From Octopus sinensis (lineage: Eukaryota), in the NCBI RefSeq assembly GCF_006345805.1, contig NC_043001.1, positions 52,638,001 through 52,702,000 of the forward strand: a stretch of DNA of 64,000 bases, given 5' to 3'. The translations under genes and the position numbers were made by a program. Below, piece after piece: positions 16,633 through 59,430 of this stretch; position 1 is the stretch's first letter; each line of letters begins with the position of its first letter. The notes beneath the pieces were generated by a model. It did no database searches. It saw only the letters and a list, made by a program, of their open reading frames with translations, and was not told the DNA's origin.

Positions 16633-17774
16633 GAAAGAAGGTTTGAAAATGCAATTTAAAAGATGTTTATTTACTTTACCGGTTTCACTCTTTGGAAAAA
16701 GATTGTCAAAAGTAACATGTGGAAGTTTGGTTGCGTTAATTATTGGTTGTTGCAAATTGCTACATTACACACATATATATATATATACAGTCTTTGGTAA
16801 CAGGGACATGTTAAGGACATAAAAAAGTTCAACAAGTTCCTTAAAATATTGGGCACAAAAGATTACATAAATAATCGTTCTCAAGGACATACTTAGAAGA
16901 TGAAGAAAAAGAAGAAGACGAAGAAGTGGAGGAGGAAGAGAAGGAGGAGGGTAAGAAGAAAAGGGTAAACAAAAATTAAATGAAATAAAACCCAAAATAA
17001 TGATGATAGAATAAAGATTATAATGAAAATGAGATTAACAGTAATTGAGAACAGAAGGAGAAGGAGAGTTAATTACATCAAAGATAAAGGAACGGAACAA
17101 TTTTGGAGTGGTCAATATTGCTGTGAGTCGTCAAAATATAGCCAGTGGGGTGTCTAATGATTTGAGGTCGCCTGTTAGGTACTAGCATATGGTATCTTGT
17201 ATTATGTGTGTGTATATATATAATATATATATATATATATTATATATATATAATATCTATATATATATATAATATATATATATATATATTTAATCAAAAT
17301 AAGTAATAGGATATCGTGTAGTGATGCAGTACGACTGCTTCAAGCGGCTTCTTTTAATTGAGCAATTAAATGCAGGGCAATCCCCAGCTGCATTAATAAG
17401 TAAATATAATTTTTAATCAATTGGACATGTAAATATAATTTTACTGAATTGTCCTAATGGAGCAAGAAGACGGAAAGAGTCCATGTTTCCAGTAATTTAG
17501 ATAAGAGTTCTACGGATAATAACGCACTGATTTGGTGCTTCAACTTAAGTACCTAATTCATCTCAATCTGAATTGTATATATATATAGATATATATATAT
17601 ATATATTATATATATATATATTCAGCAAAAACAATTAAGATCCAAGTGAATTCCAATGAATTCAAATGAATATGGTACTTAAATTAGATGCATCAGAATT
17701 CATTTATGGTATTATCCATAAAATAATGTGGGGTGATTATAACCAAGAATAAAGCAACAAGAATGGATTAGTTG

Positions 17775-17863
17775 TTTGGTACAATTGTTTCATACTAAGA
17801 ACAATTTTATTTGAGTCTGCAAATATTGCAGCAAATACAAATGTCCAGTATTCATCAGCTAAA
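17775..17863 (-). ncRNA. Type I hammerhead ribozyme motif (minus-strand arm)
   Basis: tttag-CTGATGA-atact...agtat-GAAA-caattg-TA-ccaaa; one mismatch in stem I. Confidence 0.7.
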
Positions 17864-17955
17864 TCACATATATGTTTTCCAGACATCCTAGAGAGTTTGA
17901 TTATCCTCATGAGGATGATCAAACTCTCTAGGATGTCTGGAAAACATATATGTGA

Positions 17956-18043
17956 TTTAGCTGATGAATACTGGACATTTGTATTTGCTGCAAATTTGCA
18001 GCTTCAAATAAAATTGTTCTTAGTATGAAACAATTGTACTAAA
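17956..18043 (+). ncRNA. Type I hammerhead ribozyme motif (plus-strand arm)
   Basis: tttag-CTGATGA-atact ggaca...tgttct tagtat-GAAA-caattg-TA-ctaaa: perfect 5-bp stem I, long stem II, palindromic stem III ACAATTGT, GUA triplet. Confidence 0.85.
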
Positions 18044-18107
18044 CTACTAATCCATTCTTGTTACTTTTTTCTTGGTTATATATATATATATATATAATAT
18101 ATATATA

Positions 18108-18292
18108 GTGGAGGCGCAATGGCCTAGTGGTTAGAGCAGCGGATCACGGTTTCGATTCCCAGACCGGGCGTCGTGAGTGTTTATTGAGCTAAAACACCTT
18201 AAGCTCCACGAGAGCTTAAGGCAAGTGGTGGTGGCGATCCCTGCTGTACTCTTTCGCCACAACTTTCTCTCACTCTTTCTTCTGTTGGCCTT
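18108..18292 (+). mobile_element. tRNA-derived SINE family C
   Basis: ggcgcaatggcctagtggttagagc (box A) ...ggtttcgattccc (box B), followed by a non-tRNA body. Confidence 0.75.
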
Positions 18293-22004: not shown

Positions 22005-25000
22005 TGTTTTACTCGTTACGAGACATATAACTGTCAGACGCTTCTCTGTTTATACATTGTGAGTAAGGTCGAGTAACTGCTATCTCTAGCCGGCAGTTAT
22101 CCAGTACTGGTCTCAGTAAAGTATAAATAGTCACGATCCGAGTGAGTTCAGGGGTCGGAGTCAAGTGAAGTTTCACTGTCTTTTTGGGGGGTATTTTTTG
22201 TCTCTTGAATTGCTTTTGTGAAATTTCGATCGTTGTGTACTGCTTTGCAGCAATTTGATCGTGCCTTCTCTCACCGAGAGATAGCGATGGTTGGATAAAT
22301 GAATTTATTTTACTCAGCGAATTTGAGTTATCAACGTCAGAGAAGGAGCTGTTAAACATAGTCAAGGGAATGGATGAACAACAGGAGACTAGGAAAAGGA
22401 CTTTTCCAGATGTTGCAAAAGCTTCGGAGGATAATGTGGAAATTAAAATAGGTAAATATAAAAATCTTTTAAGCCTGGATGGCTTCAACGTTCATGTATC
22501 CCACCTCGCAAGAAATGATTAGTAAAATGAAGGAAAAAACCGTGATACAAAAAAAAACCCACACTCCATGAAGGTCGGAAATTGGGACGTTATGACGTTT
22601 GAACAAGTAGAGAGGACTCTGAGGCCAATCCGGCAAGAGACAGTGGGGACCATAATGGTGAACGACACAATAATGAGTGTCAGGGAGGAGGGCAGAATCG
22701 CTCGCTTTTTTAAAATGTAGTCTAAAGAGCCACATAAGAGCGAAATGCCCTCCACCGTACAAAGAGACAGAGCGACCACAAGAGAGAGAAGACCAAGAGG
22801 ACGCCCAGGAGGAACCACAACAAGAAGAAAAAGGGAAAAACAATGTTACCAGCAGAGGTAGAAGAAGAAGAGGCGGAGAAAGAATGGGAAACAACAGGGA
22901 AAAGAAAAAGACAAAAATGAAGAAATTAAATTTAACACACACAGAACCCCACCCACAATTACTCAATACCCACCCACACCCTCTTAGTCCCACCCTCTCC
23001 CAGGAGACATCACACATTCCCCTCCAAAACTAAAACAGAAAAGTAAAGCATAAACACACAGGAACCCAGAAACTTTCCCTGACACTGTTTGTTTTGCGTG
23101 TGTGTTGTACGAGGAAGCAGAAGACGAACTGGTTAAAAAGGTAATGGAATGTAAGAATACAGTGTTTGTTGGGGCAGAGGATGTGGCGAGTATTGGAGGG
23201 TGCAATACATGCTTACTAATAACAGAAGAACAGAAAAATGGGATTTAAAAATACAAAGGATAGTCTGAAGTTTGAAAGATGGAGTATGATAAGAAGAGAC
23301 TACCAGAGAATATAGAATATGAGGAACTGAAAGAAGGCTACGGACACGGTATAACGGAATGTTGCTTGGAGTGGTAGGTAGCACCACTCTCATTTTTCAA
23401 TTTCATATGTTTTGATTTTCTTTTATTTGTTGCATGTCCCCACATGAATTTATCGTCCCCTCTTCATTGGCCCCTTGTGGACAAGAGAGAAACCAGTTCG
23501 GAGTCGAGGGAAGTTGGTGTTATTTCGCAGTGAAGTCGGCAGGTGTTAATTGGTTATTTCCCAAGGAATATTAATTGTGGGTTCTTAAAGAGATCTTTTA
23601 GTTCGTTACATTGTTACTGTTGCCTGGTTATCTTATTCATTGTACGTAACAAATCACATTACATCACCTGGAGACGAGTAACCACATTACTGAATCTGGC
23701 GATGAGGTTTTCGAAGATCATGTAGGTTATTTAATATTTTGTTCGTGATCCAATTTGTTAAATAATGGAAAACCTATTAACCTCCATAGTACAGTTCCAG
23801 TAGCAACAAGAGCAGTATCAGGAGTTGCAGAAGCAATTGTTACAGCAACAACTGCAACAACAATAATTATTGAAGCTAAATTGAAAGAGGTCCAAAAATG
23901 TGGTAAGTTTGTTTTTGCCAGACGTTGCTTCGAACTCGATTAATGAATTCAGTTATAACCCAGAGAGGACATAACTTTTGCACCGTACCACGGAAGGCAT
24001 GAGGCGATTTTTAAGCAAGATTGCAAAACATGGTTGAACGAACAACAAGTGAGAGTGTTATTGCGAAAATTAGCTCCGTTGGAGCATGAACGTTACTGTA
24101 ATTTCACACTGCCACCCACCACTAAAAAAAACAAAACAATGAAATTGCTTTTACAGAAGCAATAGAATTGCTGTCTTACGTATTCAGTGATAAAATTCCT
24201 CAATTTAACACTCGAATTGTGTGTTTCAATATAATGAAAAAAGAGAATGATGACTTTATCGTGATCGTAGGAACAGTCCACTGGATGTGTGAAAGTATTA
24301 AATTCAAAGAACTTACACTTGAGATGTTCAAGTGTCTTACTTTCGTACAGGCGAAGATACAGAAATTCGTGCAAGAATTCTTTCTAAATTTGAACATGCG
24401 AACCAAGATCTAACCGTACAATCCGTGGCAGAAGAATGCCAAAGGATGGTAAACCTGAAACACAATGTAGAAAAAATTCAAGGAAAGGATTCCTCAAAAA
24501 TACAAATATGCCGACCAGAAAAGTACAACCAAACAAGAGTCCTTCGTTCAAGTTCATGTTATGGTGTGGGGTTCTACATTTCAGAAAAGATTGTTTAGTT
24601 AAACAAAAAAATGTTACAAGAGTTCTCACTGCAGAAAAAAGTTACGAATTTCAAAAGTTAAAAATCCTAGTGCTCTCAGCAGAAACAAAAATCGACGCAA
24701 AAAAAAAAATTGTACACGAGGAAATAAATGGAATACATATTAAACTTCAATTGGTTACAGGGAGTGATATTTCAATAATATATATGGACACATTTGAAGA
24801 AAATGGGGAAACTTATGTTGAGAAAAACAACGAAATCTGCTCTTAGCGTGACGGGCGACAAATTACATTTCATAGGTGAAATGTGGACAGATGTCACATT
24901 TGGAGGTAAAATATACAAGGCGAAAGTCTTCGTCGTTAAACATGCGACCGATCTGTTTCGTACCGATTGGTTACAATTATTCGATTTATATCTATTTATA

Positions 25001-54078: not shown

Positions 54079-55500
54079 GACCAATATCTACGACAGTAAT
54101 TCCTATCAGGACAAACTATCGCAGCACACAAGTATAAGAACTCCATGCCCAGAACAAAAACAAAATAATGCAAACAAATTGACCACTCAGCGATTTGCCC
54201 AAATGACAGATGGAAGGGAGAAAAACATCCAAAAGATGCCACTGAAGAGTAACGTCCCTTGATTCATTGCTTTATTCACTGGAATTCACGAAGATACCCT
54301 ACGAACGAAACGAAGCTCTGTTTCCAAATTGTAGGTGAACACCTTTCTCCATATCTTGTATAGTGAAACTGTATACACCTCTGGTAAAAAGTGATAGGAA
54401 TCAGCCATTATAAATAGAGCAGTAGCCGGTTGTCAAGAGAGGATCAAGAATCGAAGAGTTGAGAGTCGATAGTTATAGTGGTTGTGGAGCTATCAGTGAT
54501 ACTAAGACGGAAGAAATTAGTGTATTATTATTCCGGTACGGAGCGATACAACGGTATCCGATTCTTAATGATCTAGGGGAAATCTTGCATGGTGCACTGG
54601 ATTTTATTCTGTTTTCAACAGTTCCCAATTTCTTATATATTTGAATAAATGAAGATATGGAATACAAAGGGTCTCTGATATTTTCCTGTAACTTTTTCCT
54701 GCTTTCAATTGTTCAATATTTAAGTTTTTCACTGTATTTATGAGTTCTTTACTTTTCGCCATTATTACAATACTACTTTATGGTGTCTCAGTGCTGAATG
54801 AAGAAGCTAGCGTTTTGACACTTAGAAATGACAACTGATAAGATTATTGGAACAAACGAGAAGGTTCTAGTAAAAAAAAATTATTTTAACAGTGCTTTGT
54901 GGCATAGAAAATCATAAATTTATTCTGTATGAATACTCCCACCCCTAAATATTTATGATTGTATATAAATTCCTTAATTACTATAATTTATTAGTTTCTT
55001 TTGCATATTCTTAGTTTATGCATCTGTCTGCAAATATAGTACAGATGTATCCAATTTATGTTCATTAGAAATTAAATAAATAAAGAATTTTGTCTTTTAC
55101 GAATATTTATTTCCCTCCACTGTATATGTAGGTATGTACATATATATATGTATATATGTATATATGCATATATTCATATATTATTTATATTATCATATGA
55201 TCGAACGCCACGCATCCTTTTCCAAGTAAGTTTTATATTAATAATTACGATGCGCACTCTTGTATCTCTACTATCTCTTCTCTGTCAATCTCCCTCCCTC
55301 TCTTGTTCTTCCTTTCTGTTTTTTTCTCCCACCCTTCACTATTCTTCTCCTCCCCTGTTCATCGTACTATCTCTCTCTCTCACTCTTCCTCCTTGACTCT
55401 GTCGTAACGAAAGGGAACCAATCTCTCTCTCTCTCTCTCTTCTCTATATATATATATATATATATATATACGAGAAAAAAGCAACAAGAATGGATTAGTT

Positions 55501-55591
55501 TTTCAGTACGATTGTTTCATACGAAGACAAGCTTTATTAAAAGCTGCAAATATTGCAGCAAATACAAGTGTCCCGTACTCATCAGCCAAAA
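55501..55591 (-). ncRNA. Type I hammerhead motif in the inverted 5' pLTR
   Basis: ttttgg-CTGATGA-gtacg...cgtat-GAAA-caatcg-TA-ctgaaa. Confidence 0.7.
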
Positions 55592-55670
55592 CACATATGA
55601 GTTCTCCAAGCATTCTAGTGGGTGAGGCTACACTCATGAAATATCGGAGATAGCTCTATAAAAAGCAAAC

Positions 55671-58049
55671 CCACTCCTAGAGAATTTCGAAAAAGATTTA
55701 CTGAATCTTATAGAAGATATTAAATTCAAGGAACACCCGTTAAGATACAACCCTCACCTCAAACATCTCAGTAACTTTATTCATTCAACCCGGAATAAAC
55801 AAGGAATCTTAGTACCAGCGGATAAAACTGGTAATCTGTATAGAGTAGATTACACTCTTTATAGCAAGAAGGAACTCAACTCCAAATATAAAATTACTAC
55901 TAAGAAAAATTTGAAAAAAATATGGAAAGATACAATTTAACAGATAGAACGGAGCCGCTAAAACTGTGTAAACCTAGAATCAACCTTAAAGACCACAAAA
56001 GGAATTTCATGGAAAACCCTTCGGTAAGGCTTATTTGTCCAATTAAGTCAGACATTGGCCGGCTTAGTAAATCTATCCTTGATACTGTTCTACCCCAAAT
56101 AACCCCTTTTCTTCCCTTAAGTCTATGGCTAAATACCGATGAGGTATTAAAATGGTTTAACTCTCTAACTAATACTAGTAGTCTGTCCTTTATTCAGTTC
56201 GACATAAATAATTATTACTCTAGTATTTCCCCTATTTTGCTAAATAAATCACTTATATTTGCTAAGAATCGCTCCCTCATATCTAGAGAGGAAATCGACA
56301 TTGTGCTATTAGATAGAAAACATTTATTGAATTTGAAGAAAAGTTATGGACTAATACACCTAATAATTTCGATATACCCATGGGTTCCGGTGATTCAGCT
56401 GAGGTGACTAACTTGGTAGGCGCGTATCTATTAAAATGCATAAATAAGGAGATCCCAGAATTACAAGGTGGTCTATATAGGGATGATGCTCTGTTTGTTA
56501 TCCCTAGTAATAATAAATCTAGCATTGAAAGGATTAGAAAGAAAATTAATAAGTTCTTTAAGGATTTCAACCTTAGCATAGCGTATGAACCTGGCACTAA
56601 AATAGTCAATTTCCTAGATATTACATTATACCTTAACTCTAAGCTGCATTACCCATTTAGAAAGGAAGGTGAAATCACGAGATACGTAAATAAATTATTC
56701 AATCATCCCCCAAATATAATTAAATCTTTGGTCGGAAATATTTCCTTAAGAATCTCTAAATTATCATCCAATAATGATATATTTAACTCTAATTTTGAGC
56801 ATTATAATGCGGCGTTATCTAATGCAGGATACAACCAAAAGATTACCTTTATTGATTAGGAGAGCTTACATATTCCTAATAAAGAAGGTATTAGTAACCA
56901 CGTAAACAACAATATAGACCACGCCCGAAATAAAAGTAGAAATAGATTTACGGTCACTACAAATCTAACGTACAAGCCTAATCATACAAATAAAAACATA
57001 GACCAGAGCGATTCTATCGGATATACAAAGCAAATTCAAAGTAATTCGAGAAAAAATTTCCCAGCCTCTCATAGATATCATAGAATTATTTCTAAGAAAG
57101 CGGTTAGTATTTCTTTTTCAACCCTCCCAAATATGTCCACTTTAATATTAATAGCTAAGATTAATAATAATAACATTAAGCTAGCCAGGAAAGATAAAAA
57201 TAATACCAACATGAATACCAATAACAATTGTAATAATACTATAAAAAATAAAAGCAATAACCGCAACAATAGTAACTATCAAAACATAGGTAGAATCAAT
57301 AACCATGGAATAACTAATAATAATATTAATATTAATAGGAGTAATAATGTTAATAATATGAGTAATGCTAATAGAGAAAATACCGTGAATGAAGACAACA
57401 TTGATATCTATAACAACAATATACGTTCGGATACAAATAATAGCAATAATAGTAACAATACCAATAATGTAGGTAATCATGGTAGGACTATATAACTAAA
57501 TGATAGTGTAAAAGGATCGATAAATGATAACACTGCTTTAGATAACAACATTAACTATAATAACGATAAATATACTCATGATAATCAGAATAGCAAGAAC
57601 ATGGGACATCTATCCATAAATAATTCAACATCTGAAGATGTTCCCCCTAGGTGTAATTGCAGCATTAGGTCAAAATGCCCGGCAACTGGTCTGTGCGGGG
57701 TAAATAACGTAATCTATAAATGTACCATAACTATTGAGAATAGCAAATTTCTTTATTTAGGTTGTACTATAAATTTTAGGAAAAGAGTTAGCAATCATAT
57801 CTCCTCTTTTAAATTACGTCATAAAGCTGGTACCACCACACTTTCAAGTAAGATCTGGGAACTCAAAAATAATAATATTAAATATAACATTAATTGGGAA
57901 ATATTTAGAAGAGCGATGCCTTATAGAAATAACAGGGTTGGTTGCCAGCTCTGCTCCATGGAGACGTATGAAATTCTAATGCATACAAAAATAGGAATTT
58001 GTTAAATAACCGTATAGAACTGGGTCAATCTTGTATTCATGCAAAATGA
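55671..58049 (+). pseudogene. PLE polyprotein: reverse transcriptase, Asn-rich linker, Cys-rich GIY-YIG endonuclease (frameshifts and stops)
   Basis: LENFEKDL, VPADKTGNLY, FIQFDINNYYSSI, MGSGDSAEV, GGLYRDDAL, VNFLDITL, NHPPNIIK; EN CNCSIRSKCPATGLC..NVIYKC...YLGCT..FRKRVSNH...CQLC..E....LN.R.E...SCIH. Confidence 0.92.
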
Positions 58050-59169
58050 AGACTCTAAAATATTTTAAATAAAAATAGTATAGAATAATCGTATGGAGAT
58101 AGATCTATCTTGCTTTTACTAATAAAACAAAACTCTAATATTTTTAAATAGATAACTGCGAGCTCTTACACTATGGTTATTTCTTTCTTTCTAACTGCAC
58201 CTGATTTGGAACATAAAGAAATTTATAGTATTTGTACGTTGCCTAATTGACTATGTAGTTATTTTAATTTAATCTAATTTTAATCTAATTTAGGTAATAC
58301 AACTTAAATCAAATAAGTTACTAATACTTCATAATTCTATTATAAAGTTAAATAAGTAATGCTACTCCCTTAAAAGTAGTATAAGAAAGTTCAATATGAT
58401 AAGCAATTCTCTCACAACTTGTAATTGACCTCTAAGTATAGACCTACAGACTGTCATTGTATAAACAGTAACAATAATAAATAAATTAATTAAATGACCT
58501 CCTTTCTAGTATTGCACTTAATTCTCTTAATGTATTTTCCTCTAGTGATAGCCTTTGACCCCTTTATCCCTTCCCTTGTTCTCTTTAGATTCTTATATCT
58601 GCTTTAGCTCCGTGGGATTGGCAATTAACAGCTGTATACTGGTCAAAAGTAATGTTCTCCTTTATAAATCTTAGATTCCTGCAAATTCTAAGCCAGACTG
58701 TCTGTCTCCACAGAAAGAGACCTTTCTGTGTAGGTGGGTACCTGCGACCCCTTCCCTCTCAGTTATCCCAGAATACTCTATCTGGGCGGTTTTTCTATGC
58801 TCCACAAAATTCCCTCAGCCATTATAATTCTAACATAGCAGTTTTGTGAAATGAACAGAAGTGTGACAATTATCTTATCATATATCAGGAAATTATACCT
58901 ACCTTATTGTGGATTAATCATGGATAGATTCATCGTCTGTGAGTATGAAATATCTCCTCATATCTCCGGTAATTTGCATCTACATTATGGATGGATTCAT
59001 CTTCTCTGTGAAGCTAACAAGCTTTTTTAAAAACTGTTATTAGACTGTGCAACATCATTAGAGAACTTTGGAAGTCTGCTTACAACCTAAATTTGCTTTT
59101 TATAGAAATATCTCCGATACTTCATGAGTGTAGCCTCACCCACTAGGATGCTTGGAAAACTCATATGTG

Positions 59170-59260
59170 TTTTGGCTGATGAGTACGGGACACTTGTATT
59201 TGCTGCAATATTTGCAGCTTTTAATAAAGCTTGTCTTCGTATGAAACAATTGTACTGAAA
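59170..59260 (+). ncRNA. Type I hammerhead ribozyme in the 3' pLTR
   Basis: ttttgg-CTGATGA-gtacg ggaca...tgtctt cgtat-GAAA-caattg-TA-ctgaaa. Confidence 0.8.
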
Positions 59261-59430
59261 AACTAATCCATTCTTGTTGCTTTTTTCTCGTTTATAATCA
59301 CCCCACATTATTGAATGGTTAATACCATATAGTTTTTCTGGTGCATCTAAGTTAAGTACAGCATTCAAGTGAATTCAATAGAACTCACTTGAATCTTATT
59401 GCTTTTACTATATATATATATATATATATA

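Follow-up and report, generated by a model that had tools for sequence, protein, structure and literature searches.

A palindrome of 343 bp with no spacer and with a hammerhead ribozyme motif on each strand lies in the genome of Octopus sinensis, which raises two questions: by what route was such a structure formed, and could its ribozymes act where they stand? The window, i.e., the whole stretch of DNA analyzed here, comprises 64,000 nucleotides of contig NC_043001.1 (RefSeq assembly GCF_006345805.1; forward strand, positions 52,638,001 to 52,702,000). Our reading, held with high confidence, is that the palindrome consists of two 5′-truncated, hammerhead-bearing pLTR copies of a Penelope-like element (PLE), Hydra-type by its protein motifs, which are arranged head to head within a (TA)n tract; they likely stem from one insertion event, and the ribozyme is predicted to be inactive. 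The locus itself is regarded as a dead insertion scar and provides one data point for a family-wide rule.

Structure of the Palindrome

The two arms are reverse complements of each other with a spacer of 0 nt (Table 1), and 164 of 171 aligned bases were identical, the remainder comprising seven mismatches, with one gap in addition. A previous sequence-only reading had described the locus as a spacerless palindrome of 343 bp; the arms were confirmed, but the extent was not, as the element runs 116 nt further to the left. Because the tail of the left copy reaches the long end of the element at 17622, the true insertion spans 17622–18080, and the symmetry over 343 bp is apparent only. Both arms stop at TCATGA, which corresponds to element position -174 from the short end and is one of nine natural six-base palindromes within the last 380 nt of the element. 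No target-site duplication is readable because the flanks are TA repeats.

Table 1. Features of the palindrome locus and of its long relative in the window.
Feature	Position	Strand	Remark
(TA)n tract	17576..17621	.	left half, inferred target site
One-sided tail, ~116 nt	17622..17737	-	left copy only; fills the interval from the short to the long fixed 3′ end
Left arm	17738..17909	-	5′-truncated pLTR copy, runs into the tail (long end)
Type I hammerhead motif	17775..17863	-	core intact; private stem I mismatch at 17778
TCATGA	17907..17912	.	self-complementary hexamer natural to the element, common to both arms; inversion junction
Right arm	17910..18080	+	5′-truncated pLTR copy, ends at the short fixed end
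Type I hammerhead motif	17956..18043	+	long stem II; palindromic loop III (18031-18036); predicted cut after 18038
(TA)n tract	18077..18107	.	right half, inferred target site
Decayed long relative	55465..59410	+	near full length, Hydra-type; TA at both ends

The arms differ at eight places, five in the left arm and three in the right. Each difference was absent from, or present in at most two of, approximately 46 other aligned pieces, and none was compensatory. Differences that are private or nearly so, with no compensation, look like neutral decay. An A-to-G bias of the ADAR type was not seen among them (1/8).

Spacerless palindromes are a known artefact of long reads, and an assembly artefact arising from an inverted chimeric read was considered for this locus. 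Contigs from five sequencing runs, which show presence only, came mostly from other copies, and the centre of the palindrome was spanned by none of them. However, the arms match the family in turn at the eight places where they differ, the outer ends fall on the two fixed ends of the family with a tail on one side only, and the same layout was found at 30 other loci. The arm differences and the location of the ends at fixed sites argue against an artefact, which we consider very improbable.

Hammerhead Motifs

Both hammerheads reported by the sequence-only reading were found, with a type I core and stems. In the plus-strand copy, stem I is formed by 17956–17960 and 18039–18043, the CUGAUGA core starts at 17961, stem II spans 59 nt, and GAAA (18027–18030) is followed by the palindromic CAAUUG (18031–18036) and the cleavage triplet GUA (18036–18038). 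The minus-strand copy has the same core and 9 of 10 pairs, and it was left unlisted by a strict motif scan because of its private A-C mismatch in stem I. Judged from the sequence, the motifs are consistent with type I, having CUGANGA and GAAA cores, an NUH site, and stems I and II with covariation. An Rfam search of the window returned no hammerhead at the gathering score or at E values up to 10, the matches being miRNA hairpins and chance matches only; the hammerhead call therefore relies on core motifs and on covariation among relatives.

When the hammerhead fold was applied to 18 relatives that represent several subfamilies, pairing was seen in 91.7% of cells. Covariation was seen in 6 pairs and in 14 cells altered on both sides (19/500 and 0/500 shuffles), compared with 6 such cells in shuffles, and these counts are inflated by the relatedness of the 18 sequences. 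Stem I varies among relatives from UUUAG/CUAAA to UUCGG/CCGAA and stem II from AUAC/GUAU to GUAC/GUAC. Loop III, CAAUUG in the palindrome, reads CGAUCG in one subfamily; its self-complementarity is kept across subfamilies, which backs the dimer model for these ribozymes. A gapped-pattern search for further back-to-back hammerheads gave no match with an allowed gap shorter than the 59-nt stem II.

The Parent Element

The arm is a dispersed repeat: its own genome holds 1443 candidates, of which 40 were scored and gave 45 matches, and a 26-nt hammerhead probe had 68 exact matches there (control, 0). One copy (L032), 95–96.5% identical to the window arm and belonging to the same subfamily as the palindrome arms, lies approximately 1 kb downstream of reverse transcriptase (RT) and endonuclease frames on the same strand; these frames are broken and 5′-truncated, and the RWK/DKT region is missing. 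In L032 and L060, RT followed by a C-terminal GIY-YIG domain was recognized by motifs in one ORF upstream of the pLTR. Direct or inverted pLTRs, a hammerhead inside them, and a one-sided tail were found as well, and this is the arrangement of an EN+ PLE.

The motifs of the long frame are RWK, ADKTG, YRDD, a CxCX5C linker, VIY...YIG without the cysteine pair, CxxC, and CxH. In the available text of Craig et al. (2021; PMC8557442), the Hydra clade is defined by RWK, DKT, CxCX5C, CxxC, CxH, (TA)n targets, and hammerheads. RWK and DKT, the latter instead of DKG, were present in L058–L060 and L065, while the CxCX5C linker and CxxC plus CxH around E and N, with no CCHH cysteine pair, were found in L032 and L060. 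A preference for insertion into (TA)n was evident, as 87 of 99 3′ ends had TA repeats within 16 nt. In a by-eye comparison, the frames also follow the Hydra alignment contained in the supplement of PMC8557442. By its protein motifs and this alignment, the element fits a Hydra-clade PLE. The Neptune clade was rejected, since the CX2-5CxxC linker, the CCHH motif, and DKG were not found.

Profile matches to the ORF were all below the curated Pfam cut-offs (RVT_1, E value 0.0092; GIY-YIG, E values 0.0032 and 0.011), and the whole 947-aa frame of L060 gave no Pfam match. No relative of the element protein was found by a PDB search. The RT half matched 32 database proteins, 31 of them at 32–39% identity, and the RT of the superfamily had 10871 candidates in the octopus genome. 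Several copies have open frames of 800–1100 aa and arms more than 99% identical, which suggests that sister subfamilies moved recently. Literature searches on octopus hammerheads and on octopus Penelope or Neptune elements returned nothing beyond PMC8557442.

Ends, Tail, and Start of the Element

The family has two fixed 3′ ends approximately 116 nt apart, the short and the long end, and the start of the ORF follows on from the tail in intact relatives, L065 among them. A similar motif follows both ends, consisting of CCC-ACA, a hairpin, and TTTCTGGT (L065 2390–2560, L059, and window 59296–59355). The ATG of the ORF lies approximately 50 nt past the long end, and the sequence behind this end folds weakly (-3 to -4 kcal/mol).

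A 5′ boundary at approximately -376 recurs in L002, L013, L016, L027, L030, L066, L071, L072, L076, and others, and 12 of the 21 pieces that reach this boundary stop just upstream of it. The TTAGTT at the boundary resembles an initiator. The position is likely the RNA 5′ end, or transcription start, of the element, which implies that copying ran through an uncut hammerhead. As for templates cut by the ribozyme, only 1 of 64 5′ ends fell within -45 to -37, and no pile-up was seen. Both palindrome arms end approximately 200 nt short of -376.

Head-to-Head Pairs Across the Family

A sample of 63 loci was analyzed, comprising 43 distinct loci, left after removal of 17 duplicates from 60 fetched, and 20 held-out stretches. 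Head-to-head pairs occurred at 31 of the 63 loci (20/43 in the first set and 11/20 in the held-out set). All 20 pairs of the first set combined one long end with one short end; this pairing was predicted beforehand for the held-out set and was seen in 11 of its 12 pairs. The total of 31 of 32 pairs has a p value of ~8e-9 against one half. The exception, L113 in the held-out set, has two short ends, and its second end abuts another repeat instead of TA. In 7 of the 32 pairs the arms share no sequence, so that neither arm is a fold-back copy of the other. This family-wide rule is the sole part of specialist value, as it bears on the formation of inverted pLTRs and one-sided tails, an open question in the PLE literature.

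Most junctions were flush or nearly so, and they differed at every locus. The distance between the two 5′ ends was at most 6 nt in 2 of the 32 pairs, where shuffling gave an expectation of 1.1, indicating that symmetric palindromes are not enriched. The arms of several spaced pairs were 98–100% identical, and identities across spacerless and spaced pairs were too mixed to rank the two by divergence. Microhomology was scored at 26 junctions, of which 7 were not anchorable and 7 of the other 19 had inserted bases. At the 12 insert-free junctions, microhomology of at least 3 nt was present in 5, compared with a null of 7.6%, and the value scored here for L011 is unreliable owing to an anchoring artefact, the mapping of that locus having given 3. 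Microhomology at junctions is only partly supported.

Two further loci were of note. L063 (1033–9028; G000:C4:79116500-79126400) carries a 7.9-kb near-perfect palindrome of the same superfamily, with 3887-bp arms 99.9% identical, a 112-bp spacer, and one long and one short end. At L003, the inter-arm spacer (1305–1485) is the ORF start, antisense to the long arm, which suggests that inverted-pLTR loci can be templates in either direction.

The palindrome might instead be a non-autonomous element, either a retrozyme or a viroid-like circular RNA, that spreads as a unit. Its hammerheads in both polarities are compatible with this, and non-LTR retrozymes derive from PLE pLTRs according to the accessible part of a preprint (bioRxiv 10.64898/2026.07.22.740005), which defines them by tandem direct repeats that each contain a hammerhead and have no ORF link. 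However, no tandem direct repeats were found at the palindrome, so that this definition does not apply, and each strand carries a single hammerhead copy, leaving no second one on the same strand for monomer release. Moreover, the junction sequence occurred once in the 2.7-Gb genome, and the variation of junctions from locus to locus also speaks against a mobile unit. Because of the single genomic junction, the palindrome as a mobile unit and a viroid-like circular RNA propagated as a unit were both rejected; spread as a unit is largely refuted and has next to no probability.

Origin of the Palindrome

A published model for inverted pLTRs invokes self-priming, in which the same element folds back at a palindromic hexamer and uses an antisense template (Arkhipova et al., 2013; PMC3846280, available text). 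Several observations agree with this model: the junction lies exactly on the natural palindrome TCATGA, the arms in the window overlap fully, several spaced pairs have nearly or fully identical arms, and this locus taken alone is compatible with it. On the other hand, one long and one short end were combined in nearly every pair, the arms of the seven non-overlapping pairs have nothing in common to fold back on, and both outer ends abut TA. Furthermore, by established chemistry, a hairpin with a zero-nucleotide loop cannot form within one strand. Priming from both cut ends is therefore favored over fold-back by the 31 long and short combinations and the 7 non-overlapping pairs, and inversion by self-priming appears unlikely.

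We lean toward obligate two-site priming in Hydra-type elements. The GIY-YIG endonuclease of the element would cut both strands of a (TA)n tract, and each free 3′ end would prime reverse transcription of uncleaved element RNA at its own fixed site. One of these sites would lie at the short end and the other at the long end; both show TATA/ATAT homology to the target and are followed by a similar motif of CCC-ACA, hairpin, and TTTCTGGT. The two cDNAs would subsequently be joined. The template could be one RNA in twin priming or two pLTR copies in dual priming. At the locus in the window, both cDNAs may have stopped at -174, whereupon their self-complementary ends would have annealed via TCATGA before fill-in. 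A symmetric spacerless palindrome would simply result when the two cDNAs end at one position, and overlapping arms such as those of the palindrome would need strand displacement or a second template. The hammerhead is part of the parent element and likely acts as a same-strand dimer between two direct pLTRs.

Related behavior has been described in other systems. The PAc element of the anole cleaves both strands of AT-rich DNA and extends each of them; synthesis begins at two internal sites of the RNA, one at either border of the tail, and the template RNA is uncleaved (Frangieh et al., 2024; PMC11167929, available text). Twin or dual priming by L1 gives inverted two-piece products (PMC2837659, available text). 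If two-site priming is true, self-priming, the published model for head-to-head pLTRs, would have to give way to it, and the one-sided tail would be accounted for. Approximately half of the insertions would then also leave behind hairpins that form dsRNA and silence the ribozymes they contain.

Predicted Folding and Ribozyme Activity

The sequence-only reading had stated that a read-through transcript of either strand would contain one ribozyme preceded by its own antisense copy and would form a ~170-bp rod. The folds bear this out, with energies of -259.6 kcal/mol for the plus strand and -255.4 kcal/mol for the minus strand of the full palindrome. The co-transcriptional competition between ribozyme and dsRNA that it had proposed was not borne out. 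On both strands the antisense arm is transcribed first, and the 5′ strand of stem I and the core were already paired in all tested prefixes from 17960–17970 onward, leaving no kinetic window; no switch is expected. The hammerhead fold of an isolated arm lies 2–5 kcal/mol above the minimum, and within the palindrome it lies approximately 110 kcal/mol above the rod. In folding predictions, the hammerhead was lost as soon as the antisense copy overlapped stem I by a few bases. Both hammerheads are predicted to be inactive within the palindrome, each buried by its own mirror copy. The earlier reading was thus sound on arms, hammerheads, and rod, missed the transposon, the tail, and the relative at 55465–59410, and rightly called the likeness to viroid-like RNAs superficial, as the locus is a retrotransposon insertion product.

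Provided that the locus is transcribed, the rod is a plausible substrate for ADAR or Dicer; host read-through would yield long dsRNA, as with any inverted repeat. A step further, the palindrome might function as a ribozyme/dsRNA switch, or it might have been co-opted to supply edited or small RNAs. The plus-strand hammerhead is intact, the 170-bp rod would form on read-through, and rotifer Penelope copies yield small RNAs (PMC3846280, available text). Nevertheless, the prefix folding leaves no kinetic window, and metazoan PLE hammerheads showed no cleavage as monomers and weak cleavage as dimers in vitro (PMC4209133, available text). The minus-strand copy has a mismatch in stem I and no arm change is compensatory, symmetric pairs are not enriched in the family, and both arms stop before the likely transcription start. 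A function of this kind is highly unlikely.

Neighboring Elements in the Window

The long relative at 55465–59410 is composed of an inverted short-end pLTR (55465–55669, minus strand), a broken RT and GIY-YIG ORF with an Asn-rich insert, and a 3′ pLTR with a hammerhead (59168–59262) and tail. Its pLTR and the palindrome arms share approximately 82% identity.

A second, older head-to-head insertion is located at 17292–17575 between TA tracts and belongs to a different hammerhead-bearing repeat family with 2039 candidates. In this insertion, a short-end arm on the minus strand (17506–17292) is joined to a non-overlapping plus-strand tail piece (17506–17575), and the hammerhead core has decayed to CUGGGGA/GAAG from the CUGAGGA/GAAA of its family. 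The two insertions have one TA tract in common, into which the palindrome was inserted.

Directly to the right of the TA tract, a very abundant repeat (18108–18290) has tRNA-like A and B boxes by eye and a contig depth in the millions. From these sequence features it is probably a SINE; ARAGORN found no tRNA in it. On the minus strand, 24394–24846 contains a 150-aa frame with no Pfam match, whose fragments resemble by eye a zinc knuckle and an aspartic protease site, perhaps of a decayed LTR retrotransposon. Four other ORFs of the window and two homologues gave no Pfam match (0/6).

Comparison with Known Systems

Palindromes of this type are already known in kind, as opposite-strand hammerhead pairs, junction palindromes, and one-sided tails have all been published. 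Viroid-like RNAs carry two distinct ribozyme sequences that process rolling-circle multimers. As in the palindrome, each strand carries a hammerhead and the fold is rod-like, whereas the ribozymes of the palindrome are one sequence duplicated in genomic DNA, in a single-copy unit known from DNA alone.

Hydra-clade elements described in the available text of PMC8557442 have, as here, an inverted 5′-truncated copy, a one-sided tail, TA targets, and a hammerhead in the pLTR. Their typical unit is shorter than 3 kb and their tail is 30–40 nt, whereas the element studied here is approximately 4.3 kb long, with an ORF of approximately 950 aa containing an Asn-rich insert, a tail of approximately 116 nt, and a hammerhead with a 59-nt stem II. 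The supplement of that paper includes an octopus family, Hydra-1_Obim. Six exact probes of the element were not found in the supplement, where line breaks could hide matches; judged by sequence, the element is a different family from Hydra-1_Obim.

Truncated PLEs of Schistosoma contain dual minimal hammerheads 100–700 bp apart on opposite strands (Cervera and De la Pena, 2014; PMC4209133, available text). These pairs resemble the present one in the short stem I, long stem II, palindromic loop III, and dimer requirement, while stem II is much longer here and the pair is perfectly symmetric. Among the systems that inform the proposed mechanism, PAc belongs to the Poseidon clade and its ORF begins inside the hammerhead; one site per cut end is not shown in the available text of PMC11167929. 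In L1 twin priming, the poly(A) tail is combined with a variable internal site (PMC2837659, available text), in contrast to the two fixed sites found here. In the literature searched, mostly without subscription papers, neither twin priming nor one site per cut end was proposed for PLEs.

The inverted pLTRs of Adineta vaga share with the octopus palindrome the head-to-head arrangement, the palindrome at the junction, and the tail on one copy, and the pLTR elements of this rotifer likewise have Asn-rich ORF inserts and AT-rich targets (Arkhipova et al., 2013; PMC3846280, available text). That study favors self-priming for their formation, whereas the counts obtained here favor two priming events.
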